From: Candidatus Hadarchaeales archaeon
Lineage (GTDB): Archaea > Hadarchaeota > Hadarchaeia > Hadarchaeales > Hadarchaeaceae
Direction: 5' to 3'
DNA: 33,254 nucleotides
Assembly (NCBI GenBank): GCA_038872135.1
Contig: JAVZGN010000012.1
Span: forward strand, 1 to 33,254
Shown piece by piece: positions 3-19,969 of this stretch. The stretch's first letter is position 1; every line of letters starts with the position of its first letter. The notes beneath the pieces are model-generated. The model saw only the letters and a program-made list of their open reading frames with translations, was not told where the DNA came from and did not search any database. The position numbers were made by a program, and so were the translations under genes.

Positions 3-908
3 GGTTTAGATGATCTGGATGATGGTGCAACAGTCGATGTGGGTGGCCAACAGGTTGTGTTTACCACAGACGCCCACACAGTAAAACCCATCTTCTTTCC
101 GGGCGGGGATATCGGAAAGCTCTCTGTCTGCGGAACTGTGAATGACCTAGCCGTGATGGGAGCCCGTCCCCTCGCCATCTCCTCGGCGGTTGTAGTTGAG
201 GAGGGTTTCTTGGTAGAGGATTTTAGAAAGATATGCCGTTCCATGGCTACCGTGTGTTCGGAGATCGGCTTGCCATTGGTCACGGGGGACTTTAAAGTCA
301 TGGAAAAAGGGGCATTGGACAGCATAGTGATAACTACGACTGGACTTGGGCTGGCAAAAGAGGTTAAAACCGACAGCATGCTGAAGCCAGGACAGAAAAT
401 CATACTCACAGGAACAATTGGAGACCACGGGGCAACTCTTCTCGCCGTCCGTCATGGTTTTGACATAGAAAAAGAGCTTTGCTCCGATGTGGCCCCCATT
501 TGGGAAACTATTGAAGCCGCCATGCAGGCCGGAGAAGTTTCTGCAATGAAAGATCCAACAAGGGGAGGTTTTGCCGGGGCTTTAAATGAAATGGCATCAA
601 AATCGGATGTTGGAATAGTGGTCTGGGAAGACAGGATTCCCATTCTAGAACCAGTTTCGGCATTATGCGAAACCCTCGGAATCGACCCGCTCTATCTGGT
701 GAATGAGGGGAAAGCCATAATCGGAGTGGATGAAAAAGACGCCGAATCCATCCTAGCGGCCATTCAGAAGACAAAGTATGGAAAGAACGCCGAAATAGTT
801 GGGGAGGTTTTAAAAGATTACCCTGGAAAAGTAATTTTAGAAGCTAGAAATGCTGGGCGGAGGATTCTTCAACCACCAGAGGGAGACCCCTACCCGAGGA
901 TTTGCTAG
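3..908 (+). CDS. hypE: Hydrogenase maturation carbamoyl dehydratase HypE (5' end outside window)
   Basis: The frame is open from the window edge (GLDDLDDGATV...). Motifs FTTDAHTVKPIFFPGGDIGKLSVCGTVNDLAVMGA, MKDPTRGG and NEGK are present, with the diagnostic C-terminal PRIC. Confidence 0.96.
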   Translation, partial: GLDDLDDGATVDVGGQQVVFTTDAHTVKPIFFPGGDIGKLSVCGTVNDLAVMGARPLAISSAVVVEEGFLVEDFRKICRSMATVCSEIGLPLVTGDFKVMEKGALDSIVITTTGLGLAKEVKTDSMLKPGQKIILTGTIGDHGATLLAVRHGFDIEKELCSDVAPIWETIEAAMQAGEVSAMKDPTRGGFAGALNEMASKSDVGIVVWEDRIPILEPVSALCETLGIDPLYLVNEGKAIIGVDEKDAESILAAIQKTKYGKNAEIVGEVLKDYPGKVILEARNAGRRILQPPEGDPYPRIC

Positions 909-1594
909 AGGAATTTTTTAACAATCAAGTTGTCTTTCGTGGCCCCGATTTTTTCCAGGACTTCTAGTGCCCACCCTATCTCTCCCGCCTCAGCAACTCT
1001 GTGAGCGTCGCTACCTATGCTTAGGAGGACTCCCTCTTCTAAGCACATCTGTAGAAGCTCGATGTTTGGAGCCTTGTATTTGATATTTATTTCAATCGCT
1101 ACCTTTCGTTCTGCTAACAACTTAACGAAGTTCCTTACTTCTTCAGATGGAAGATATGGGAAAAGATCTGAGTGATAAAAGAAGGGGTGAGTCAAGATAT
1201 CGGGCTTATGGGTAAGAATGCAGTTAGTTGCCCTTGCAAGGTATTCCTTAGCCATTTCGTCTAGCCGACGGGTTTTCAGCGTATGAATACCCACAATCAA
1301 GAAATCCAACTTCCGGATAATGTTGTCGTCAATATCGAGGTTACCGTCGTCTGAGGCAATGTTGGCTTCCATTCCAATCAGAAACTTGGTGTCAGTTTGG
1401 TCCTGGAGAACTCTTGCCCCACTAATCATTTCTTCTATTCGATTCTTTTTTATCCCCACCGCCAATCCAGGCCCATGATCAGAAAGACCGCCTAAAACTA
1501 CCCCCTTTTTTGTGATGGTGTCGATCATCTCTTTCTGTGTGGCAACTCCATCCGAATATGTGGTGTGCAGATGAAGGTCAAACCTAGGTAGCAT
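905..1594 (-). CDS. PHP-domain metallophosphoesterase (YcdX/HisK-like)
   Basis: PHP metal motifs DLHLHTTYSDG, SDH, GMEAN, GIH, THP, EIN and GSDAH. Start moved to ATG 1594 (MLPRFDLHLH), which lies about 25 nt downstream of a BRE/TATA element. Confidence 0.88.
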   Translation of the reverse strand: MLPRFDLHLHTTYSDGVATQKEMIDTITKKGVVLGGLSDHGPGLAVGIKKNRIEEMISGARVLQDQTDTKFLIGMEANIASDDGNLDIDDNIIRKLDFLIVGIHTLKTRRLDEMAKEYLARATNCILTHKPDILTHPFFYHSDLFPYLPSEEVRNFVKLLAERKVAIEINIKYKAPNIELLQMCLEEGVLLSIGSDAHRVAEAGEIGWALEVLEKIGATKDNLIVKKFL

Positions 1595-1613
1595 GTGTAA
1601 ATGTAGAATTGGG

Positions 1614-1630
1614 TAGATATAAGCGTTTTT
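1614..1630 (-). promoter_or_regulatory. Putative BRE/TATA promoter of the PHP gene (probably leaderless mRNA)
   Basis: The minus strand reads AAAAACG-CTTATATC about 25 nt upstream of ATG 1594. Confidence 0.55.
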
Positions 1631-1650
1631 GAGTGGGATCCTGGGGTGAG

Positions 1651-1760
1651 TTTTAACTATTTTTATCATTTTTTCACCTAAATTGTCAGAAATAGTTAAA
1701 AATAGTAAAATAGAAAACTTTATATTTAGTTAAAAATAGTATAAAATGGTTAAAATGGAA
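1651..1760. repeat. AT-rich array of roughly 10-bp-phased A4-5T(A/G)GT repeats, with inverted copies
   Basis: Exact 15-mer TAGTTAAAAATAGTA at 1693-1707 and 1727-1741. Cores at 1693, 1703, 1727, 1737 and 1747, degenerate ones at 1711 and 1756. Inverted AAAAATAGTTAAAA at 1651-1664. Confidence 0.85.
1713..1726 (+). promoter_or_regulatory. BRE/TATA promoter of the HTH-HNH / ATPase operon
   Basis: GAAAAC followed by TTTATATT (1719-1726), about 25 nt upstream of ATG 1746. Confidence 0.7.
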
Positions 1761-2456
1761 ATCGGCGAAAAAATGTATAGGATCGGTGAAGCAGCCGCGC
1801 TTTTAGGCGTCCACCAAAACACCATAAGGCGATGGGAAAAGGAAGGCAAAATTAGAGTGGTTAGAGCCCCCGGTGGCCACCGAAAAATCCCAGAAAGCGA
1901 AATCAAACGCCTTTTTGGTCCCCCATCTTTACCATCACAACCCTCAGAGCTTTCCAGAGAAGATAAATTAAAGGCTTTCATAGACTTTGTTTTTTCATAC
2001 TGTCAGGATGATCTTGAACTGATTAAAAAAGCAGTAATAATAAGAGATAATTTTACCTGTACAAAGTGTGGTTCAAAAGAGATGCTGACTATACACTATC
2101 TCGATGGCACGATGAGAAATGATCCAGAAAATCTCATCACCCTCTGCCAGAAATGTTATGATAACTTTCACGGGAAGATTTCGCCTCCACCACCATCTCC
2201 ACAGGTAATTTCCCAACCGATAAGCAAGCAAGCAGTATTAAACGCTCTTGCTCCTACTGGCATGGCGCAAAAAACCGCTTATGGCGAGCTTCTCTCAGTT
2301 GCGTTAGCGATGAGAAAGTTTGGCGTCGAGGAATTGGCTTTTAGGGCAAAAACTCCGAAAATTCTGGCCGAAAACTTTTGTAGAAGAATGCAAGAGCTGG
2401 GATATGTAAAATGTGAAAATAATATCTTTGAATTGATAGTAGAAGTGATTAAATGA
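1746..2456 (+). CDS. Multidomain DNA-binding protein: MerR-like (IS607 TnpA/BldC/Xis-type) HTH, degenerate HNH zinc finger, probable C-terminal winged helix
   Basis: N-terminal YRIGEAAALLGVHQNTIRRWEKEGKIRVVRAPGGHRKIPESEIKRL. Central RDNFTCTKCG...TIHYLDG...ENLITLCQKCYDNFH. C-terminal VEELAFRAKTP...RRMQELGYVKCENNIFEL. The domains are joined by Pro-rich linkers. The start could instead be 1755 or 1773. Confidence 0.8.
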   Translation: MVKMEIGEKMYRIGEAAALLGVHQNTIRRWEKEGKIRVVRAPGGHRKIPESEIKRLFGPPSLPSQPSELSREDKLKAFIDFVFSYCQDDLELIKKAVIIRDNFTCTKCGSKEMLTIHYLDGTMRNDPENLITLCQKCYDNFHGKISPPPPSPQVISQPISKQAVLNALAPTGMAQKTAYGELLSVALAMRKFGVEELAFRAKTPKILAENFCRRMQELGYVKCENNIFELIVEVIK

Positions 2457-3334
2457 CTCTGTGGGAAGAAAAAATCACCAGGGACCTTCAGTATGAAAAT
2501 TATCTCAAGAAATGGGGACTAAAAGAAGACCCATTCTCTCCATCTTTGCCCAGCCCAGAAGCTTTCGTCCCTATTCAGAAAGAAAATCTTGTGCGAATAA
2601 AAGAGCTGCTCGGGGAAGGAAAGACCGGACTCCTCACTGGAGAGTTGGGCATGGGAAAAACCACCATCTGTGAGTTTCTTGTCGCTGTTCTCAGGGAAGA
2701 AAATCTTCTCACAACCGATCAGAGCAGGCACATCATCCCAGTTTTTATCCACACTCCTGCCTACTCGTCTATCGAAACACTGCTAAAGGGGATTCTCCTC
2801 TCCCTCCAACTCAACAACCAAATTGAACCTCCACAGATGTTTGAAGTTTTGAGGAGATGGTATTTGGAGCACCCGGAAAAGCTGGCGCTGATTTTCGACG
2901 ACCTCCCTCAGGCTCAGGCCCCTCCGATGGCGTTCGGCGAATTTTTACGCGTTCTTTCGGATTTGCCGCAGATTTCATTGCTTTTAAACGGTGAAACAGA
3001 AAATATGCGGCGATTTCTGGATAAAAATCCGGCTTTAAAGAATAGAATTCAATTTCATGCCAGAATAAGGCCAATGACAGAAATGGAGGTAAGAGATTTG
3101 CTTATCTTTAGGTTGAAATTGGGTGGCTGTTCAGACTTTAGCCTTCTCACACCTGAAGCCATAAGGACAATTTACAGGTTTAGTGGGGGGAATCCAAGGC
3201 GGGCGCTGAAGATCGCGAGCAACTCTCTAAAGCTGGCTGCAACTTTGGATTCTCACATCACATCAAAGATCGTGAAAATGGCGAACAGAAGACCATTACT
3301 CGCGAGGCTGCTTCGGCGGGTGGAGGAATTCTGA
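2453..3334 (+). CDS. ExeA/GspA-like (AAA_22) AAA+ ATPase
   Basis: YLKKWGLKEDPF N-terminal signature, Walker A GELGMGKTT (2639-2665), Walker B LIFDD (2888-2902), arginine finger ALKNRI and sensor-2 SGGNPRRAL. ATGA overlap with the upstream gene. Confidence 0.85.
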   Translation: MTLWEEKITRDLQYENYLKKWGLKEDPFSPSLPSPEAFVPIQKENLVRIKELLGEGKTGLLTGELGMGKTTICEFLVAVLREENLLTTDQSRHIIPVFIHTPAYSSIETLLKGILLSLQLNNQIEPPQMFEVLRRWYLEHPEKLALIFDDLPQAQAPPMAFGEFLRVLSDLPQISLLLNGETENMRRFLDKNPALKNRIQFHARIRPMTEMEVRDLLIFRLKLGGCSDFSLLTPEAIRTIYRFSGGNPRRALKIASNSLKLAATLDSHITSKIVKMANRRPLLARLLRRVEEF

Positions 3335-3351
3335 GGAGAGAAATCCTTTTT

Positions 3352-3372
3352 TACTTCCAAAAAATGGAAGTA
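3352..3372. promoter_or_regulatory. Perfect inverted repeat TACTTCCA-N5-TGGAAGTA, putative operator
   Basis: 8-bp arms at 3352-3359 and 3365-3372, between a TATA-like TTTTTTA and the GGTGA ribosome-binding site of the next gene. Confidence 0.6.
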
Positions 3373-3384
3373 TGGTGAAGAGCC

Positions 3385-3780
3385 ATGAGAGATGATGTTT
3401 CTCCCGAAGTCTGGCTGAAAAAAGATCTCGTGGCCCAGAAGCTTTTGGAGATGTCCCACCTCAAAAAAGAAACACTTCTTCCGCTCATGTACTATACGAG
3501 GGAAAATGGAATAACCTTTGAAAAAATCGCCAAAAAGATGAAAATAAGACAGCCAAATGCTTGGAAAAGGTATCAAAAAGCCAAAAATGAGATTTTACGC
3601 TCTTTTTGCACTCTAAAGCTAGCTCTCCACGCTGGCGTGTTGGATGAAAAGGTCGCCGATTTGATCAAGGACGACCTCTTAGATTACCTCGGGTTGCTCA
3701 GAAATGAGGTTGATGAGAGCGAAGCAAAGTACAGGATGGAGAAGAGAATGATCGAGCTGATAAACAGGCTCAAAAAATAA
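3385..3780 (+). CDS. Small all-helical protein with sigma70-region-4-like HTH
   Basis: TFEKIAKKMKIRQPNAWKRYQKAKNEI HTH pattern. GGTGA ribosome-binding site upstream of the ATG. Confidence 0.7.
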   Translation: MRDDVSPEVWLKKDLVAQKLLEMSHLKKETLLPLMYYTRENGITFEKIAKKMKIRQPNAWKRYQKAKNEILRSFCTLKLALHAGVLDEKVADLIKDDLLDYLGLLRNEVDESEAKYRMEKRMIELINRLKK

Positions 3781-3903: not shown

Positions 3904-5028
3904 CTATATCGCCTTTTCCAGCACCTCTTCCATTTTTGTTGCTACCCTATCCCAGGAATATTTCTCTATAACATTTTTATGGCCAGCCTCGGAAAGCTTT
4001 TTCCTCAGCTTTTCATCAGATGCCATTTTTTCCAATTTTTCTTTCAGCTCTTCAACATCCCTTGGCCGGAACAGCACTCCAACCCTTCCATTTTCAGTAA
4101 CCTCTCTTAAGGCAGGTATGTCGGCGCAGAGGGTTGGAACTCCTGCAGCCATCGCCTCCACAACAGCAATGCCGAATCCTTCGACAGTCGAGGGGAGGAC
4201 AAAGATATGAGATGACTTGAGTAGCCGAATCTTTTCTTCATCGCTCACAAAACCGGTAAAAACAACCTTTTTTGAGATTCCAAGTCCCCTGGCCATTTTT
4301 TCTAGTCTTTCCCTTTCGTATCCCACCCCCACGACATAAAGCTCACAGTCAATCTTCAGCTTGGAAAATGCGAGGAGGAGATCATCGAGGTGCTTGTACT
4401 CTATGAGCCGGCCGACATAAATCACTCGCAACTTTTTTGATTTTTCTGCTTTAACACTATCGAATAGGTTAAGGTCGACTCCGTTTGGGATAACCTCGAT
4501 ATTTCCTGGAGACACACCTGCGGCGACCAATTTCTCTTTGGTTGAATTTGAAACCGCCACTATTTTTGAGTAGGGGATGGCAAGGGAGAGTTTTTCAAAC
4601 GCCATCATCGCATATCCCCCAATCCCATAGTTTGCAATCCACTCCTTTGTGAAGAAGACATCGTGGATCGTCACCACAACAGGTGAATCAAAAATCCTCG
4701 CCCCCATCCACAGAGGAGGAATGGGAAAGAAATGCTGGGGAGCATAGACATCAAATTTTCCAAGCCCGGCGGTTTTTAAAAACCCGAACCCCATAAATGA
4801 AAGTCCATCAACAAACTTCAATAGGGTGGCCTTTTTTCCAGGGGTGTATATCCTGTGGATATACATGTTTTCATGGGTTTCAAATGCCGGCAGACCCTCC
4901 ACTTTTCTTGTGATGACGTGAACTTCATGATTTTTGGCAAGCCTTTTTCCAATCTCATACATCCTTCTTTCTCCTCCGCCGGGAAGGACGGGATAGAAGA
5001 AGTCGGATCCTATAAGAATTCTCATCAT
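3904..5028 (-). CDS. Glycosyltransferase family 4 (GT-B)
   Basis: N-terminal GGGE loop, VIPNGVD, YVGRLIEYK and EGFGIAVVEAMAAG (EX7E motif). Confidence 0.93.
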   Translation of the reverse strand: MMRILIGSDFFYPVLPGGGERRMYEIGKRLAKNHEVHVITRKVEGLPAFETHENMYIHRIYTPGKKATLLKFVDGLSFMGFGFLKTAGLGKFDVYAPQHFFPIPPLWMGARIFDSPVVVTIHDVFFTKEWIANYGIGGYAMMAFEKLSLAIPYSKIVAVSNSTKEKLVAAGVSPGNIEVIPNGVDLNLFDSVKAEKSKKLRVIYVGRLIEYKHLDDLLLAFSKLKIDCELYVVGVGYERERLEKMARGLGISKKVVFTGFVSDEEKIRLLKSSHIFVLPSTVEGFGIAVVEAMAAGVPTLCADIPALREVTENGRVGVLFRPRDVEELKEKLEKMASDEKLRKKLSEAGHKNVIEKYSWDRVATKMEEVLEKAI

Positions 5029-6530
5029 TTTCCCCTCCTCATGACGTCGGTAAGGAAATATCTAAGCAACCTTGCCATCAGCCCCACATCATCAATCGAC
5101 TTTAACTGCTTAAGTCGCTTTTTCACACTTTTCAAGGACAGCTCTTTTACAAGCCTGGCAGAATAAAACTCAAAGTTTGCTCTCTTCAGCCAGTACATCA
5201 GGTCATCCTTGCTCATCGTCTTTATATCCATCGTCGGCATCAGCACTTTATAGGAGCTCCAGTCTGGTTCGCTTTCCAAATAACCTGCATCCTTTGCAAG
5301 CTCATAGAGTCTTGTTCCTGGATATGGGGTGGCGATGAAGAAACTCGCAAAATCCAGGTCGAGCCACTTCGCAAACTCTATCGACTTCCTCACAGTTTCG
5401 GGGGTTTCCCCCGGCAACCCGATGATGAAGAATCCATTGGTCCATATCCCCAGTTCATTTGCCCATCCAACTACCTTCTTCGCATGCTCGGCAGAAATCG
5501 GTTTTCCAATGACATTGTTTCTGAAGTGGGGATCCCCGTGCTCCAGTCCAAAGCACAGCCAGTAGCATCCCGAGTCCCTCATCTTCTTGAGCAGGTTTTG
5601 ATTGAGGGTGTTTATGTGGACGCCGTTGGGGGTTGCCCAGCAGACATCTAGCCCCCTCTCAATCATGCCGTCGCAGATCTTCTCCATCCTCTTTGGGTCA
5701 AGCGTGAGGTTGTCGTCTTCAAAGTGAATCTCCTCCACACGGTATTTTGTGACGAGATGCTCAAGCTCCTCGAGAACATTTTCAGGAGACCTAGGGCGCC
5801 ACGCGTACCCCCAGATGGTGTGGATGGAACAGAAGATGCATCTTCTAGGACAGCCGCGGCTGGTGATAACGCTGGTAAAGCGAGACTTCCTCTCCGCCGC
5901 CCCATGCCCACCGGCAGCTTTAAAATACTCCTCCATCGGTAAGAGATGTCTTGCGGGAAAAGGAAGGGAATCGAGATCGCGGATGAACTCTCTAGGGGGA
6001 TTCATGATAACTCTGCCCTCTCGCTTGAATGCTAGCCCTTTCACTTGACTGAAATCAGTTTGCCCCTTTTCGAGAGCCTCCACAAGCTCTAACAGCGTTA
6101 TCTCCCCCTCCCCCATCACCACAAAGTCAACATTTTTGTCAGCAAGGGTTTTTTCCGGCAACACAGTTGGGTGAGCGCCCCCAAATACAGTCTTGATTTC
6201 GCTATCTACCTCCTTCACAATTTTTGCAACTTCATGAGCGTTTGCTGCTTGGGATGAGAAGAGGCAGCTGATTCCGACGAGGTCCGGCTTCCACCCAGCT
6301 ATCCTTCTTTTTATCTCTTCTTGTGGAAGGCCAACTCTCAGGAATGTGTTACCGCCTCTTTCAACAAATGTTTGGTTTCTCCAGCCCTCTCCGACAGCGT
6401 CTAGAATCGCCACCTCCTTTCCATTTTTCTCCAAGAAGCTGGCAAGGTAGGCTATGCCGAGGGGGGCTACAACCCTCGGTTTTTCAAACGGTAAAATGGT
6501 CATGGGCGGAAAAATGAGCAGAACCCTCAC
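5025..6530 (-). CDS. Cobalamin-binding radical SAM protein (class B)
   Basis: N-terminal B12-binding domain (PLGIAYLAS, PDLVGIS, GGAHPT, VVMGEGE), SRGCPRRCIFC cluster motif and ATPYPGT. Start moved to GTG 6530, which follows a GGAGG site. Confidence 0.9.
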   Translation of the reverse strand: MRVLLIFPPMTILPFEKPRVVAPLGIAYLASFLEKNGKEVAILDAVGEGWRNQTFVERGGNTFLRVGLPQEEIKRRIAGWKPDLVGISCLFSSQAANAHEVAKIVKEVDSEIKTVFGGAHPTVLPEKTLADKNVDFVVMGEGEITLLELVEALEKGQTDFSQVKGLAFKREGRVIMNPPREFIRDLDSLPFPARHLLPMEEYFKAAGGHGAAERKSRFTSVITSRGCPRRCIFCSIHTIWGYAWRPRSPENVLEELEHLVTKYRVEEIHFEDDNLTLDPKRMEKICDGMIERGLDVCWATPNGVHINTLNQNLLKKMRDSGCYWLCFGLEHGDPHFRNNVIGKPISAEHAKKVVGWANELGIWTNGFFIIGLPGETPETVRKSIEFAKWLDLDFASFFIATPYPGTRLYELAKDAGYLESEPDWSSYKVLMPTMDIKTMSKDDLMYWLKRANFEFYSARLVKELSLKSVKKRLKQLKSIDDVGLMARLLRYFLTDVMRRGK

Positions 6531-6612
6531 TTCACATCCCTCCAGCCGTGATTCCCAAAATGATTTTTTTCGTTCATTCCACCAGAGAGAGTTCACCGGC
6601 AAGGAAAAAACG

Positions 6613-7281
6613 CTATCCCTTGGGCAAAACCGCTAACCTTAGCTTTAAAAGCTCTATCGCTATCCTCACACCGCTGAAGATGGTGGTCCCCCTAGCCCTC
6701 GAATAGGCTGTGAAGTAGCATTTCACAGGAGCCTCCTTTATCTTCAATTTTTTCATGGCAGCTTGGATGATTATCTCGGATGAAACCACATATCTGTTGC
6801 TCCTTATCTGAATTTCCTTGAGAGCCCTGGCACCAAAAGCCCTCAGTCCAGATTGCGAGTCCACGAGAGGTCCGCCGAGGAGCCTCGTGAACATGTTTAG
6901 AGCAAAATTGCCAATTCTCTTGTTGAGTGGGATTCCAATGAATTTGCGTGCACCGATAACAAGGTCTGCACCGTCCAGTTCCCCCACAACCCTTTTCACA
7001 TCTTCTGGGTCATGCTGGCCGTCAGCGTCAAATGTCACCACAACATCTGCTTTCAGTTCTTTTGCTTTTGAAATGCCGGTCCTGAGTGCGGCTCCAAGCC
7101 CCATGTTTTCTTTGTGAGAAATAACTACAGCTTTTTTAGATTTTGCAATCTCTGCTGTGCGGTCTTTCGAACCATCATCGACTACAATTATGTTTTTCCA
7201 CCCATTTCTGTGTAGCCCGTCTATCACGCCTCCAATCATCTTCTCCTCATTGTAGGCAGGAATGACGATCCACACATTCAT
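6613..7281 (-). CDS. Glycosyltransferase family 2 (DPM1/polyprenol-phosphate glycosyltransferase-like)
   Basis: IVIPAYNEE, VVDDGSKD, DADGQH and DSQSGLRA motifs. Confidence 0.93.
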   Translation of the reverse strand: MNVWIVIPAYNEEKMIGGVIDGLHRNGWKNIIVVDDGSKDRTAEIAKSKKAVVISHKENMGLGAALRTGISKAKELKADVVVTFDADGQHDPEDVKRVVGELDGADLVIGARKFIGIPLNKRIGNFALNMFTRLLGGPLVDSQSGLRAFGARALKEIQIRSNRYVVSSEIIIQAAMKKLKIKEAPVKCYFTAYSRARGTTIFSGVRIAIELLKLRLAVLPKG

Positions 7282-8201
7282 TTTCCGTCTACCCCGAGCA
7301 ATTTTTTCACCCCATCTCTGAGAGAGATCTTGGGTGTAAACCCCAGCAGTTTTCTAGCTTTTCCGATGTCTGCAACGCTATGTCTGATTTCCCCGGTTCT
7401 TGCGGGCCTGTGGATTGGTTTGAGATCGGTTCTTCCAGAGAGGGTCAGGAACATCCTGCAGAGCTCATTTATGCTTGTGGCAACCCCAGTCCCGACATTG
7501 ATAATTTCCCCGGCACAATTAGATTCCACAGCGAGCTCTGTTGCACGAGCAGCGTCTTCTACATTGATGAAATCTCTTGTCTGGTTCCCATCACCGAAAA
7601 TTATTGGGGGAAGCCCCCGTCGAATCCTGTTCATGAACTTTACCATCACTCCGGCGTAAGGTCCGCCCTTCTGCCCTGGACCGTAGATGTTAAAGTATCT
7701 GAGAATTCTCACGTCAAGACCATCTTTTTCGTGAGCTTTCAAGCAAATCTTTTCAGCTTCAGCTTTCGAAGCCGCGTAGGGTGAAAGAGGATGAAGCTCG
7801 ACATCTTCTCTGATTGGGAGCTTTTCCTGCTCTCCATAAACTGCGCAAGAGGATGCCAGAATCATTTTCGCTCCTACCTTTAGGGCTGCTTGGAGGACTT
7901 CTGCAGTCCCTTCAACATTCACCTTCCTCGTTATTTCGGGATTTTTGAAGGAAAATGGAACACTGATGATCGCCGCCTCATGGATTATGACATCGACTCT
8001 TCGGGCAGCTTTTTCTAAAGACCTTTTGTCTAGGATGCTCCCCTTCACAAATGTAAAATTTTCGTTTCTGAGATGTTTTTTTATCCTGCTCAGGCTTCCG
8101 GTGGAGAGATCATCCAGCACCACCACCTCATTGGATTTCAGCAGGTTTTCTGCGATGCGGGAACCAACGAAACCGGCACCACCCGTTATCAGCACTTTCA
8201 T
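7278..8201 (-). CDS. NAD-dependent nucleotide-sugar epimerase/dehydratase (UDP-glucose/GlcNAc 4-epimerase-like)
   Basis: TGGAGFVG Rossmann motif, SSCAVYG, YAASK catalytic motif, RYFNIYGP and QTRDF. Start moved to ATG 8201. Confidence 0.92.
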   Translation of the reverse strand: MKVLITGGAGFVGSRIAENLLKSNEVVVLDDLSTGSLSRIKKHLRNENFTFVKGSILDKRSLEKAARRVDVIIHEAAIISVPFSFKNPEITRKVNVEGTAEVLQAALKVGAKMILASSCAVYGEQEKLPIREDVELHPLSPYAASKAEAEKICLKAHEKDGLDVRILRYFNIYGPGQKGGPYAGVMVKFMNRIRRGLPPIIFGDGNQTRDFINVEDAARATELAVESNCAGEIINVGTGVATSINELCRMFLTLSGRTDLKPIHRPARTGEIRHSVADIGKARKLLGFTPKISLRDGVKKLLGVDGK

Positions 8202-8254
8202 CGCATCAGATTTTACTTGCCTCCATCTTAAAATATGCTGGAGAACATCTAAGT

Positions 8255-8674
8255 ATGGTTGAGATGCGGACATATGTGAAGGAATTTACATTCACCACGA
8301 GGAATCGAAGGGAGATAGTTGACCTCACCGACCGGATAACTGAGATAGTGAATGAGTCGAAAATAAAGAATGGAATGCTTCTGGTTCAGCTGCCCCACGC
8401 AACAGCCTCCCTCGTGCTCAATGAAGGGGAGGAGGGGCTTGAGCGGGATATACTGGAAAAGCTTGACGATCTCGTCCCAGTCAGGGGAAACTACCACCAC
8501 GACATGATTGACGACAATGCCCACGCCCACATAAAGGCAGCGATTCTTGGCTCTTCAAAAGTGCTACCCATAGTGGACGGAGAAATTTTAAGAGGGACTT
8601 GGCAAAATTTTCTCGTCGTGGAGGAAGATGGCCCTAGGACCAGGAGAGTTGTGGTCTTCATGATTGGTGAGTGA
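8255..8674 (+). CDS. yjbQ: YjbQ/UPF0047 family protein
   Basis: PHATASL, YHHDMIDDNAHAHIKA, GTWQ and EEDGPRTR motifs. Confidence 0.92.
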   Translation: MVEMRTYVKEFTFTTRNRREIVDLTDRITEIVNESKIKNGMLLVQLPHATASLVLNEGEEGLERDILEKLDDLVPVRGNYHHDMIDDNAHAHIKAAILGSSKVLPIVDGEILRGTWQNFLVVEEDGPRTRRVVVFMIGE

Positions 8675-12567: not shown

Positions 12568-15500
12568 GTGGTTGACACTTGGCCGGTTGTTGAGGCATTT
12601 CTGAGGGAAAAAGGTCTTGTTCGTCAACATCTCGACTCCTACAACCAGTTCATAGAGAAAGGACTCCAGCAGGTCATAGATGAGGTCGGCGGGATAGATC
12701 TGGATATAGAGGGAATTGATGTGAAATTTGGGAGGATACGCCTCGAAGAGCCTAAGGTCATTGAGGCCGATGGCTCTCCAAGAGATCTCTGGCCAAATGA
12801 AGCTAGGCTCAGGAATCTGAGCTACACGGCCGCGATGAGGCTTGAGATGAGCCTCGTGAAAGGTGGGAAGCAACTGCCGCCAAAGGAGGTCTACATTGGA
12901 GATTTCCCGGTGATGCTAAAGTCAAAAATCTGCCGCCTCTACAACTTGAGTGATGAAGAGCTGATAAAGGCCGGCGAGGATCCTCTAGACCCGGGAGGCT
13001 ATTTCATCATAAACGGCTCCGAGAGGGTTGTTGTTGCTCAGGAAGATCTCGCTTCCAACAGCATTTTGGTGGAAAGAGATGAAAGGGTTGGCACAGAAGT
13101 TGCGAAAGTCTTTTCAACCCACCGCGGTTTCAGGGCTTTTGTTGTTGTGGAAAGAAAGAGAGATGGACTCTTGAGAGTTTCATTCCCGGCCATTCCCGGT
13201 CAGGTGCCACTTGTTGTATTGATGAAGGCGCTGAAGCTGGAGAGGGATGCAGACATTGTGAAAGCTGTTTCTGAAGACCTTGAGATTGCAAGGGAGCTGT
13301 TTGAGAATCTTCGGGAGGCAGCCGAGATAAGGACAAGGGATGACGCTCTCGACTACATAGGAAAGAGAGTCGCGGTTGGACAGCCGAGAGAGTATCGGCT
13401 GCAGCGGGCGCAGGAGGTTCTTGACAAATATCTTCTTCCCCATCTGGGAACAACCCCAGCAGACAGGCTAAACAAGGCATATTTCTTGGGACGGATGACG
13501 GAGCTGGTGATAGAACTAGCTTTGGGAAAGAGGGAAGCCGACGACAAGGACCACTATGCAAACAAAAGGTTGAAACTAGCGGGGGATCTCCTTGAGAGCA
13601 TTTTCAGGATAGCCTTTCTCAACCTCGTGAGGGACATAAAATACCAGCTTGAGCGCGCATACTCGAGAGGAAAGGAGCTTGACCTGACCACGGCTGTGCG
13701 TGCAGATGTTTTGATAGAGAGAATTAGACATGCGCTGGCAACCGGCAACTGGCCGGGAGGAAGAACCGGCGTGAGCCAGCTCCTCGACCGCACAAATTAC
13801 ATCGCTGCGGTTTCTCATCTCCGGCGGGTGGTCTCGCCACTCAGCAGAAGCCAGCCCCACTTTGAAGCGAGAGATCTCCACTCAACCCACTTCGGAAGGA
13901 TATGCCCATCAGAAACTCCAGAGGGGCCAAACTGTGGCTTGGTCAAGAATCTCGCAATAACGGCCGAAATCTCAGTTGGGACTGAAGAAGAAAAGATAGA
14001 GCGGCTACTCTCGAAGCTTGGCGTTAGGAAGATAGCCAGGATAAGTGAGAAGAAGGGCAAGGCAACAGTCTACATAAACGGAAGACTGGTGGGAGTAACG
14101 GACGACGGGGAGCTTCTGGCAAAGGAGATTCGGAAATACAGAAGGAACAACACACTGGACGATCAAGTGAATGTTGCCTACAAAGAGGACACGGACGAGG
14201 TGAGAATAAATACCGATGCCGGGAGGATTCGCCGCCCCCTGATAGTAGTTGAAAAAGGCAAATCACTTTTGACAGAAGATCTCGTGGAAAAAGTAAAGAA
14301 TGGGGAGCTCAAATGGAGGGATCTGGTAGCTAAAGGTGTCGTTGAATATCTTGATGCAGATGAGGAGGAAAATGCATATATCGCCGTCCAAGAGAGCGAG
14401 ATAACCCCAGAGCACACGCACCTTGAACTCCACCCCCTTGCAATTTTGGGGATTAGCACGGCATTGGTTCCATATGCAGAGCACAATCAGTCTCCAAGAA
14501 ACACCTACGGAGCGAACATGGCCAGGCAGGCGCTCGGTCTCGCCTGTACAAACATTCACAACAGAATGGACACAAGAGGACACTTCATGCACTATCCCCA
14601 GGTGCCGCTCATCGACACAAAGATAATGGATCTGGTTGGTTTCAATAAAAGACCGGCCGGCCAAAACCTAGTCGTTGCAATAATCACATATGGCGGATAT
14701 AACATGGAGGATGCAATTATCGCGAACAAGGCTTCTATCGATCGTGGAATGGGCCGCACCACATTCTACAGGACCTATGAGGCAGAAGAGATAAGATATC
14801 CGGGGGGACAGATGGACAAGTTTGAAATTCCAAGCGAGGAGATAAGGGGTTATGCCGATTCAAGCTTCTACAGGAATCTCGGAGAGGACGGTATCATCGA
14901 GCCTGAGGTGGAGGTTAGGGGAGAAGATGTTTTAATAGGAAAGACAAGTCCCCCCCGTTTCCTCGAAGAGATCGATGAGTTCGGAGTTGCCACCACCCAC
15001 GGGAGGCGCGAGAGTTCAATCAGAGTTAGACCGAGCGAGGAAGGAATCTCCGATGCTGTAATAAAGACGACGACATTGGATGGGACAATGCTGGTGCGGG
15101 TGCGGGTGAGAGATCAGAGGATTCCAGAGATAGGAGATAAATTGGCTTCGAGACACGGGCAGAAGGGGGTAATCGGGATAATTCTAGATGCCGCAGACAT
15201 GCCATTCACCGAGAGCGGGATCATTCCAGATATTCTGATAAACCCCCATGCAATTCCTTCAAGAATGTCGATAGGACAGCTCCTAGAGATGATTGCTGGA
15301 AAGGTTGGGGCCATGAATGGGAAAAAGATAGATGGGACTCCATTTAGCGGTGTTCCGGAGGCAGAGCTTAGAAAAGCTCTTGTGGAGAGTGGTTTCAAGA
15401 GCACAGGAAAGGAGGTCATGTATAACGGGATTACTGGAGAAATGATTCCAGTTGAGATTTTTGTTGGGGTTTGCTATTACCAGAAGCTCCATCATATGGT

Positions 15501-15867
15501 TGCAGATAAGATTCACGTGAGATCTCACGGCCCCATCCAGGTCCTCACCCACCAGCCCACAGAAGGCAGGGCGAGAGAGGGTGGGTTGAGATTCGGGGAG
15601 ATGGAGAGGGACTGTTTGATTGGGCATGGAGCAGCGATGCTGTTGAAGGAGAGACTTCTGGATGCTTCAGACAAACATCGTGCTATGATCTGCAGGAACT
15701 GTGGCAGCCTCGCATACAACGATAGAAGAAAGGACAGATACATCTGCATGTACTGCGGCGAAACTGATGTCGATGAGGTTGAGATGTCTTATGCATTTAA
15801 ACTTTTGCTAGATGAGCTGAGATCAATGGGGCTCTTCCCGAGAATAAGAACAAAGCACAGAATATGA
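12568..15867 (+). CDS. rpo2: RNA polymerase subunit Rpo2 (B), unsplit
   Basis: [49 protein letters not shown] and a C-terminal zinc ribbon, all in one 1099-aa frame. Confidence 0.99.
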
Positions 15868-15876
15868 GGTGGGAAG

Positions 15877-19969
<4,093 letters not shown>

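Follow-up and report, generated by a model that had tools for sequence, protein, structure and literature searches.

Here we describe a three-gene locus of the Hadarchaeales, uncultured archaea of the deep subsurface with genomes of about 1 Mb, and tentatively read it, with a confidence that stays somewhat short of even, as an autoregulated nucleoprotein switch: an ATP-controlled complex that would assemble on essentially one chromosomal site, its own promoter. The locus lies at 1651-3780 of the window, by which we mean the whole stretch of DNA analysed, 33,254 nucleotides that make up positions 1 to 33,254 of contig JAVZGN010000012.1 (C12) in the Candidatus Hadarchaeales archaeon assembly GCA_038872135.1 (1.08 Mb, 34 contigs, 91% complete). 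It comprises three co-oriented genes on the plus strand: p1, whose product joins an N-terminal winged helix-turn-helix (HTH), an HNH domain and a C-terminal winged helix; p2, which encodes an AAA+ ATPase of the ExeA type; and p3, which encodes a small all-helical HTH protein. In the proposed switch the p2 ATPase would be tethered to DNA via p1, and p3 would act separately as an autoregulator that binds a palindrome.

A sequence-only reading of the window had proposed a module of this kind, composed of a repeat array, an HTH/dead-HNH protein, an ExeA-like AAA+ ATPase and a further HTH protein. That composition is borne out at these positions, and the coordinates and neighbour families agree with its three genes, their ATGA coupling and their housekeeping surroundings. 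The claim that the module is undescribed also stands; no paper was found on Hadarchaeota with ExeA, nor on such a module among the top-listed literature on ExeA, AAA+ ATPases, winged helices and archaea. To this picture we add that the array is probably p1's own operator, that a second, palindromic site precedes p3, that the HNH domain is optional, that relatives exist in which ATPase and winged helix are fused, and that a PolX-type PHP gene travels with the trio.

The repeat array at the p1 promoter

The p1 gene is preceded by two blocks of phased direct repeats, with a 10-bp unit of approximately ATnGTTAAAA, which stand on either side of a TATA-like element and take up much of the 77-bp intergenic region between p1 and the divergent PHP gene (Table 1). 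Within the array, the 12-mer GTTAAAAATAGT occurs at 1695 and at 1729 (1729-1740, exact), with a one-mismatch copy on the minus strand at 1656-1667; these three matches compare with 0.08 expected, and none of 100 shuffles reaches three. A weight matrix of the repeat unit finds three units in 10-bp register only in the two blocks of the array when run over the whole assembly, a result whose informative part is the absence elsewhere, since the matrix was trained on the window sites themselves. One candidate for a further p1 target in this genome (G000), a weak site of two units that precedes an ATPase gene on contig C15, was set aside because it looks like an ordinary promoter.

The arrangement recurs throughout the family. 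All orthologous p1 upstream regions carry repeats spaced by ~10 bp that straddle a TATA-like element and reach the start codon, with nine units each in genomes G024 and G013. The strict pattern GTTA-N6-GTTA-N6-GTTA, searched for in 46 genomes of the family, yields 21 matches spread over 10 of these genomes, 19 of the matches lying within ~2.6 kb upstream of p1, as against a single match for a reversed-pattern control. Two side observations concern the extent of such repeats. Contig C26 of G031 (locus L020, 1-82) breaks off within a perfect tandem array built from the 20-bp double unit ATTGTTAGGAATGGTTAAGG, with at least eight 10-bp units, and the array of that genome may be longer than assembled. 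Furthermore, in genus g8 (L057, 11713-14060 of G062; also G061, G063 and G066) a 276-280-aa gene without a Pfam family lies, in one or two copies, between p1 and hypE, each copy being followed by a GTTA/TAAC repeat segment that resembles the p1 promoter region.

Just as the position and uniqueness of the array can be read directly from the genomes, so can the way in which its core varies with the HTH of p1. Where the relevant HTH segment is VHPNTIR (14 rows, one of them a duplicate), the upstream 130 nt contain two to eight GTTA cores and no GACA, locus L016 being the exception; where it is V(C/S)xKTIQ (7 rows), they contain two to five GACA cores and no GTTA, with L019 as the exception. Families f2 and f4-g15 have another N-terminal HTH in p1, with just a weak HTH_3 match (E 0.0072), and the sequences upstream of p1 are TGTAGG-N7-CCTACA palindromes in f2 and GTAGAC/GTCAA repeats in f4-g15. 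The two direct-repeat types do not track genus: G001 belongs to the window's genus and is of the GACA type, its p1 N-terminal domain being 71-75% identical to copies from genera g4 and g11 versus 55-67% to those of its own genus. This co-variation is what would be expected if the p1 HTH reads the repeats, and the array accordingly sited may be taken as the putative promoter and operator of p1 itself. The G001 case (L010/L052) is also of interest in its own right: its p1 has no HNH domain and is of the GACA type as in genera g4, g7 and g11, and its p2 and p3 resemble those of its own genus, which suggests that a p1-plus-operator cassette has been exchanged between genera.

p1, a putative DNA-binding adaptor

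The structural model of p1 (predicted local distance difference test score, pLDDT, of 89.6) contains three confident domains joined by low-confidence linkers, among them a disordered stretch at residues 146-153 between the HNH and C-terminal domains. Residues 10-57 form a winged HTH of the BldC/excisionase, MerR-like type (MerR, 3.7e-12; HTH_17, 5.4e-11), with an above-cut-off match to excisionase model TIGR01764 (5e-11). This domain aligns with the BldC structures 6ama and 6amk at a probability of 1.00, with a root-mean-square deviation (rmsd) of 1.4-1.9 over 49-55 columns at 35-36% identity (6ama_B: rmsd 1.9, 55 columns, 36%), and a p1 orthologue (L005) matches BldC in sequence at E 3.1e-6. 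The model has no coiled coil after residue 57; in this p1 agrees with the BldC family, whose MerR-like winged HTH lacks a coiled-coil helix for dimerisation. It does not belong to the BldC subfamily proper, scoring 43.7 bits against NF033787, below the cut-off of 77, and having three domains rather than one. BldC is described as binding direct repeats as cooperative head-to-tail multimers (PMC5859096); by analogy, the phased direct repeats at the p1 promoter are consistent with multimer binding of this sort.

The middle domain, at residues 71-143, is a confidently modelled HNH (PF01844, 2.4e-4; 21.6 bits against a cut-off of 21.4) that resembles the HNH of phage GVE2 (5h0m, E 1.5e-4) and has both zinc-binding CxxC pairs (CTKC and CQKC). 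The canonical His was assigned by aligning a p1 orthologue to the solved 5h0m, in which the second His of the orthologues' VHH falls on the canonical DH histidine; in the window the motif reads IHY, with Tyr in place of the general-base His, and the dead HNH surmised from the sequence is thereby confirmed for this copy. Among 20 distinct loci (the window and 19 relatives), the domain is found in 13 and absent from 7. Eight of the 13 keep the second His (H-H), and the remaining five have lost it, as HY (the window), HK, HR, QE or KE. Absence in seven loci together with degeneration in five indicates that the HNH domain and its nuclease activity are dispensable.

The last domain, residues 159-236, is modelled as an extended winged helix, closest to TFE-alpha (6pln_A; Z 10.5, rmsd 2.0, 71 aligned) and to the Fur DNA-binding domain (Z 10.1). 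It is the best-conserved part of p1 outside the HTH, and is retained in distant families even where the N-terminal HTH is a different one. A Foldseek search returned no match at E<=0.001 for p1, nor did one for p3.

p2, an ExeA-clade ATPase with a predicted contact to p1

p2 has the P-loop core of ExeA/GspA-type ATPases, matching AAA_22 above its cut-off (2.2e-8), with a Walker A of GELGMGKT, a Walker B of FDD, an NGE motif, a sensor-2 of GNPRRAL and an N-terminal WGLxxDPF; the last is of the (F/W)GLxxxPF type, which we take to be a hallmark of ExeA. Residues G66, G68, K69, T70, D149, D150, N179, P248 and R249, from Walker A, the DD pair, NGE and the sensor-2 PR, are invariant across 19 sequences. 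Structural neighbours of the p2 model in the protein Atlas are ExeA/GspA clusters (template modelling score 0.79-0.83). The protein is related to, and no equivalog of, the XrtA/PEP-CTERM-associated ATPase TIGR03015 (1.4e-12; 47.6 bits, far below the cut-off of 324.5); it also matches TniB marginally above cut-off (5.2e-5; 23.2 bits vs 22.4) and PHROG 296, a 'DNA transposition protein' (2.9e-10). It ends after the lid, at 293 aa, with neither a winged helix nor a peptidoglycan-binding extension. By sequence, the AAA+ protein of the PDB that it matches best is Cdc6 (7jgr_G, 1.4e-4); identity as an Orc1/Cdc6 initiator was considered and ruled out, as p2 falls outside the eight TIGR02928 matches of the genome (E<=0.001), which holds two canonical Orc1/Cdc6 genes, on contigs C8 and C3.

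A sublineage feature deserves mention here. In the p2 of the window and of the two relatives closest to it (83% and 70% identity), residues 149-153 (2897-2911) are DDLPQ, as opposed to DDxxE in 20 of 20 other orthologous rows; a catalytic or regulatory glutamate may have been lost specifically in this lineage.

The link between p1 and p2 comes from complex prediction. p2 modelled together with p1 residues 155-236 gave an interaction prediction score from aligned errors (ipSAE) of 0.70, 0.69 and 0.71 in three runs, compared with 0.01 for the best of three controls; the pLDDT of the partner was 87, and at least 91% of contacts were common to the runs. The pass mark used for such complexes is reached by 58 of 80 solved complexes and by 2 of 110 mismatched pairs, counts that hold only roughly for p1-p2, for which alignments of our own were used. 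The interface residues on p1, 165-181 and 195-207, include most of its near-invariant columns. Taken together, these predictions support, without showing, that the C-terminal winged helix of p1 binds p2.

Relatives of p2 in other lineages are built in a manner that recalls this pairing. The nearest ones outside the Hadarchaeales are ExeA-like AAA+ proteins of 353-391 aa that carry a C-terminal winged helix, and occur in the phylum's other order, in genomes with proteins named Aenigmarchaeota and, more distantly, in Thermococcus, species of which have a relative of 401-408 aa annotated just as 'ATPase'. These fused relatives are ExeA-like (TIGR03015, 1e-14 to 1e-29) and not Orc-like. Their existence raises the possibility that the C-terminal domain of p1 plus p2 is a permuted, split form of such a protein. 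In the small archaeal genomes G070, G245, G188 and G167 (L031-L033, L036), the fused relatives stand beside a PRC-barrel gene, followed by RadA and an OB-fold-like gene on the other strand.

p3 and its palindrome

The best model of p3 (pLDDT 90.6) is all-helical with no beta strands, and consists of a sigma-region-4/Tfx-like HTH at about residues 23-76 followed by a helical hairpin. In this one confident model of five, residues 23-76 superpose on the HTH and stem helix of EnfR (8hno_A; Z 7.2, rmsd 1.0, 52 aligned), as they do on domains of sigma region 4. Domain-family searches gave p3 no family match, and there was no significant sequence match to solved structures. At E<=1e-3, a profile of 19 p3 orthologues retrieved only 14 proteins from 1.84 billion cluster representatives; p3 thus represents a family confined to this lineage.

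Between a TATA-like stretch, which it follows immediately, and the p3 start codon, 26-80 nt farther on, stands a palindrome with the consensus T(A/G)(C/T)TTCC-N7-GGAA(G/A)(T/C)A. In 26 of 29 rows its core, TTCC-N7-GGAA, occurs in the 200 nt that precede p3, as compared with 0.005 expected per 200 nt, and in one of the three misses (L040) the palindrome overlaps the chosen p3 start. The site is kept both where p3 lies downstream of p2 and where it is divergent. In the genome of the window, the strict palindrome with an A-rich spacer has one copy; loose half-site palindromes number 15, versus 3.9 in mononucleotide block shuffles, and no other among them has an A-rich spacer. Since the palindrome stands between the TATA element and the point where transcription is expected to begin, it is more probably a DNA operator than an RNA hairpin, and we propose that it serves as the operator of p3's own promoter. 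EnfR (TON_1525, PDB 8hno), a member of the Tfx family, is described as a dimer on a pseudo-palindrome in a promoter (PMC10570040).

Conservation and distribution

The trio is vertically inherited across the Hadarchaeales, lineage-specific and chromosomal; its gene anatomy and conservation are direct observations. p1 and p2 have one copy each in the genome. With p2 as query, matches were found in 49 of 61 related genomes, including 31 of the 36 from the same family; profile searches over 66 genomes of the phylum located p2 in 58 and p3 in 61, the misses being mostly incomplete assemblies or contig ends. All 19 same-family loci have p1, p2 and p3 in this order on one strand, and the ATGA common to the p1 stop and p2 start (2453-2456) has its counterpart in a 4-nt overlap in 18 of the 19 relatives' loci and a 1-nt overlap in L016, which is consistent with co-translation of the two genes. 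In f2 and f4-g15 the genes are linked, with p3 on the opposite strand and divergent from p1-p2. In f5, represented by one genus, p3 comes after the topoisomerase VI B and A genes (L039, 1793-4901; L059; L060, 4330-8165), and in the f5 genome G040 a run of DNA ligase, p1, p2 and adenylate kinase lies 5 kb from p3. Sequence divergence is considerable, the trio of the window sharing ~50% (p2) and 37-44% (p3) identity with same-genus copies. A contig scan with p2 added a single locus, a duplicate of G004. Homologues bear the names Hadarchaeales or Hadesarchaea.

The sequence-only reading had named checks that could have gone against it, and these came out in its favour: the genes are co-conserved and vertically inherited across the order, and the pairwise complex prediction that it called for gave a predicted p1-p2 contact (ipSAE 0.70 vs 0.01). 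Homologues in mobile elements would also have told against it; none were seen in viral contigs (two pattern-limited scans, with the p2 and p3 profiles) or, for p2, in phages and plasmids (tblastn). The segregation, tethering or cell-cycle roles that it put forward are conjectural, and its suggestion of a domesticated transposon-targeting module gained no transposon relative in the collections searched and no transposase neighbour among the genes tested.

Genomic setting and linked genes

The trio is flanked on one side by HypE (TIGR02124, 2.6e-110) and the divergent PHP-domain gene and on the other by a GT4 glycosyltransferase gene (Table 1). Farther on come RNA polymerase B (a single 1099-aa gene), then A' and A'', as well as EF-1alpha, LeuA and PheRS alpha/beta (12568-19684), a context that places the trio in the core chromosome, outside any island. 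No recombinase or transposase is found among the tested neighbour genes (open reading frames at 5025-8273 lay outside the family scan), no integrase or terminase among the tested neighbours of the trio, and no secretion or pilus gene among the tested neighbours HypE, PHP, p1, p3 and GT4.

Table 1. Coordinates of the genes and candidate regulatory sites of the locus within the window.
Feature	Position	Strand	Remarks
PHP-domain phosphoesterase (PolX-type PHP)	905-1669	-	PF02811, 1.7e-10; divergent from p1, common repeat-bearing intergenic region
Inverted 10-bp repeat units, two	1651-1670	-	Over the PHP start codon (1667-1669)
Phased direct 10-bp repeat units, three (ATTGTCAGAA, ATAGTTAAAA, ATAGTAAAAT)	1682-1711	+	Upstream of the TATA box
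TATA-box-like element TTTATATT	1719-1726	+	20-30 nt before p1 start; putative promoter function
Phased direct 10-bp repeat units, three (TTAGTTAAAA, ATAGTATAAA, ATGGTTAAAA)	1726-1755	+	From the TATA box to the first p1 codons
p1, 236 aa	1746-2456	+	Winged HTH, HNH and C-terminal winged helix
p2, 293 aa	2453-3334	+	ExeA-type AAA+ ATPase, base and lid
Palindrome TACTTCC-N7-GGAAGTA	3352-3372	+	33 nt before p3 start, directly after a T-rich TATA-like stretch
p3, 131 aa	3385-3780	+	All-helical; HTH (about residues 23-76), then helical hairpin

The PHP protein matches PRK08392 (6.5e-38) and also the section of PolX that forms its PHP exonuclease/phosphoesterase (9.2e-22). Of 15 wide loci (L043-L057), 11 have HypE and 12 have PHP no more than 5 kb from the trio, with varying order and orientation; in the window the two genes fall within 3-1669. 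In the window and four other loci the PHP gene points away from p1, with the array between them; in the two f2 loci it comes immediately after p2, and in one of these, L055, it overlaps the p2 stop. It is possible that PHP is a fourth, loosely linked component of the module; HypE is as tightly linked as PHP, and the linkage of the latter may thus be inherited synteny. Elsewhere, in G046 (f5), p3 and a MinD/ParA-type ATPase gene overlap next to topoisomerase VI, and RadA adjoins the fused AAA+/winged-helix relatives in G070. By weak guilt by association, the neighbourhood leans to DNA transactions.

A model of the locus and its alternatives

In the switch that we propose, winged HTHs of p1 would bind head to tail on the 10-bp phased direct repeats on either side of the TATA box, and p1 so placed would repress its own operon as well as the PHP gene where that is divergent. 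A flexible p1 linker, with an optional HNH insert that is inactive in this copy, would lead to the conserved extended winged helix, which would dock on the base domain of p2 and tether the ATPase to the array. Oligomerisation or hydrolysis by p2, in either case dependent on ATP, would then stabilise or dismantle the p1 filament. p3 would be a separate dimeric protein with a Tfx/sigma-region-4-like HTH, repressing its own promoter via the TTCC-N7-GGAA palindrome. DNA binding, repression and the ATP switch are steps that we infer, as is the biological output, most likely a control over genes for DNA transactions, for example that of the linked PolX-type PHP phosphoesterase.

Several points weigh against this model. 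If the p1 array is the sole target, the circuit would be purely self-regulating, with no evident output. In several genomes the arrays run to 6-9 units over 100-300 bp, a length beyond what a simple repressor would call for and compatible also with a site of the centromere, iteron or filament type. The genomes compared are related, and the co-variation of site and HTH may therefore reflect few evolutionary events, possibly only two or three, which is no statistical proof. The f5 genomes G043 and G046 (92% complete) have p3 and no detectable p2, nor was p1-p2 found there, so the three genes are not strictly interdependent. In the sublineage of the window, p2 has Gln for Glu and the HNH is dead, so this copy may differ in activity. 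Four of the five p3 models have a pLDDT of 55-70. Finally, the p1 profile did not pick up the winged helix of the fused relatives (E<=1e-3), which leaves the split-gene idea as one drawn from architecture only.

The length of some arrays brings forward the first alternative, centromere-like segregation or tethering, in which the array would be a unique centromere that doubles as an operator (as parC does in parMRC), p1 the adaptor and p2 an AAA+ nucleoside triphosphatase (NTPase) that positions or tethers the locus via MuB/TnsC-like filaments or gradients. We regard this as unlikely, though the length and uniqueness of the arrays and the modular adaptor suit it just as well as they suit the switch: the site is essentially unique per genome and upstream of the operon, two phased-repeat blocks of up to nine units flank the promoter, and contact between adaptor and NTPase is predicted. 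Partition systems, moreover, show co-diversification of site and site-binding domain with conserved NTPase docking, as p1 does in its HTH and C-terminal domain, and the MinD/ParA-type gene that overlaps p3 in G046, next to topoisomerase VI, would fit as well. Set against these points, the array of the window is short, with 6+2 units in ~105 bp, and an autoregulated transcription factor accounts for the same sequence features. ParABS and parMRC systems have an NTPase of the ParA, actin or tubulin class, and p2 is of none of these; we know of no ExeA-clade AAA+ ATPase that serves as a partition motor. The stronger form of the idea, a fourth mechanistic class of DNA segregation in which AAA+-driven partition or tethering would employ the array as a centromere-like site, p1 as adaptor and p3 as regulator, strikes us as a little less credible again.

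A similarly low chance goes to a DNA-processing or repair module of mobile-element ancestry, in which a site- or structure-directed nuclease or adaptor with HTH and HNH domains would work with an AAA+ ATPase of the TniB/MuB/ExeA kind and a PolX-type PHP protein, the array being just autoregulatory. The excisionase-type HTH of p1, the PHROG 296 and TniB matches of p2 and the likeness of the HNH, canonical in eight of the 13 loci that have it, to that of phage GVE2 all point in this direction, and so do the PHP gene within 5 kb of the trio in 12 of the 15 wide loci and over the p2 stop in L055, the DNA ligase and topoisomerase VI genes near the f5 loci and RadA near the fused relatives. Yet the HNH is absent from seven of 20 loci and degenerate in five; the tested neighbours include no transposase, integrase or terminase; no relatives appeared in the viral contigs, phages and plasmids searched; the module is single-copy, syntenic and order-wide; and the linkage of PHP, equalled by that of HypE, is possibly inherited synteny.

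Anti-virus defence or abortive infection, with an HTH sensor, an HNH effector and an AAA+ ATPase, is very improbable. PADLOC gives domain-level matches only, for p1 (mad1 HTH, 9.3e-11; ZorE HNH, 2.6e-5), with none better than E 0.03 for p2 and none for p3, and the divergence of the trio from its same-genus orthologues, though in keeping with such a role, is countered by its presence in nearly all genomes of the order as a single copy, at a conserved chromosomal position and in no island, and by the repeated loss of the would-be effector HNH. Least credible of all is an accessory replication origin, at which an iteron-like array and a winged-helix, initiator-like protein would recruit an initiator-clade AAA+ ATPase: the AT-rich, iteron-like repeats, the winged helix of p1 and the Cdc6 structure as best PDB match of p2 are outweighed by the two canonical Orc1/Cdc6 genes elsewhere and the missing TIGR02928 match, by an intergenic region of just 77 bp without a separate unwinding element, and by a sign change of the composition profile at 4-8 kb that we read as coinciding with the minus-strand genes there.

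The locus is of interest for several reasons. A gene set kept in nearly every member of the Hadarchaeales is likely to matter to the cell, and it provides a concrete case of an ExeA-clade AAA+ ATPase that is predicted to work on DNA via a detachable, sequence-specific adaptor. It comes with candidate sites for two naturally occurring specificities, GTTA and GACA, and for a variant that would bind palindromes, with a predicted interface at hand, and with a nuclease domain whose natural decay marks what is dispensable. If the ATPase does remodel an adaptor-DNA filament, the archaeal theme of AAA+/winged-helix regulators (Orc1-2 and relatives) would extend to the ExeA clade; if its role is instead to position DNA, as in the first alternative, it would represent a segregation motor of a new kind.

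Comparison with known systems

Partition loci in which centromere and operator coincide include parC-ParR-ParM, the archaeal AspA-ParB-ParA and SegAB. The locus has in common with them promoter-flanking phased repeats, a unique site and an adaptor-NTPase contact, the last predicted for p1-p2, and differs in that its NTPase is AAA+ rather than ParA-, actin- or tubulin-like and in being chromosomal.

With the ExeA/GspA ATPases (COG3267; TIGR03015), p2 has in common the AAA_22 core, Walker A, sensor-2 'PR', the lid and the (F/W)GLxxxPF-type motif, and JGI names its relatives 'ExeA'; unlike them it is archaeal, has no peptidoglycan-binding or membrane part and is paired with a DNA-binding adaptor. 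In this pairing p2 may be likened to TniB, TnsC and MuB, AAA+ ATPases of a related clade that are brought to DNA by a sequence-specific recruiter (TniQ/TnsD or MuA). The p2 locus departs from those systems in lacking a transposase among the tested neighbours and element ends, and in being single-copy, vertically inherited and of conserved synteny.

For the two HTH proteins, the closest comparisons are with BldC and EnfR. p1 resembles BldC in its N-terminal winged HTH and in an array of direct repeats as apparent target, the unit being 10 bp at the p1 array versus the 9-bp AATTxxxx(C) of BldC. BldC is a global regulator of a single 68-residue domain, whereas p1 has two more domains and apparently one target locus. 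p3, in its one confident model, superposes on the HTH and stem helix of Tfx/EnfR and shows, in place of the C-terminal alpha+beta 'note-head' domain of EnfR, a helical hairpin; the sequence match between the two is not significant.

Finally, Orc1/Cdc6, Orc1-2 and the PF01637 'archaeal ATPase' SSO1545 are, like p1-p2, cases of an AAA+ ATPase that works with a winged helix, and the winged helix of SSO1545 matches the C-terminal domain of p1 (Z 7.8). In contrast to these proteins, the winged helix of p1-p2 sits on a separate upstream protein, TIGR02928 is unmatched and the closest relatives are ExeA-like. Orc1-2 is described in terms that make it a precedent for an archaeal AAA+/winged-helix protein that is no initiator and acts as a regulator (PMC9738581), the role that we tentatively propose for p1 and p2 together.

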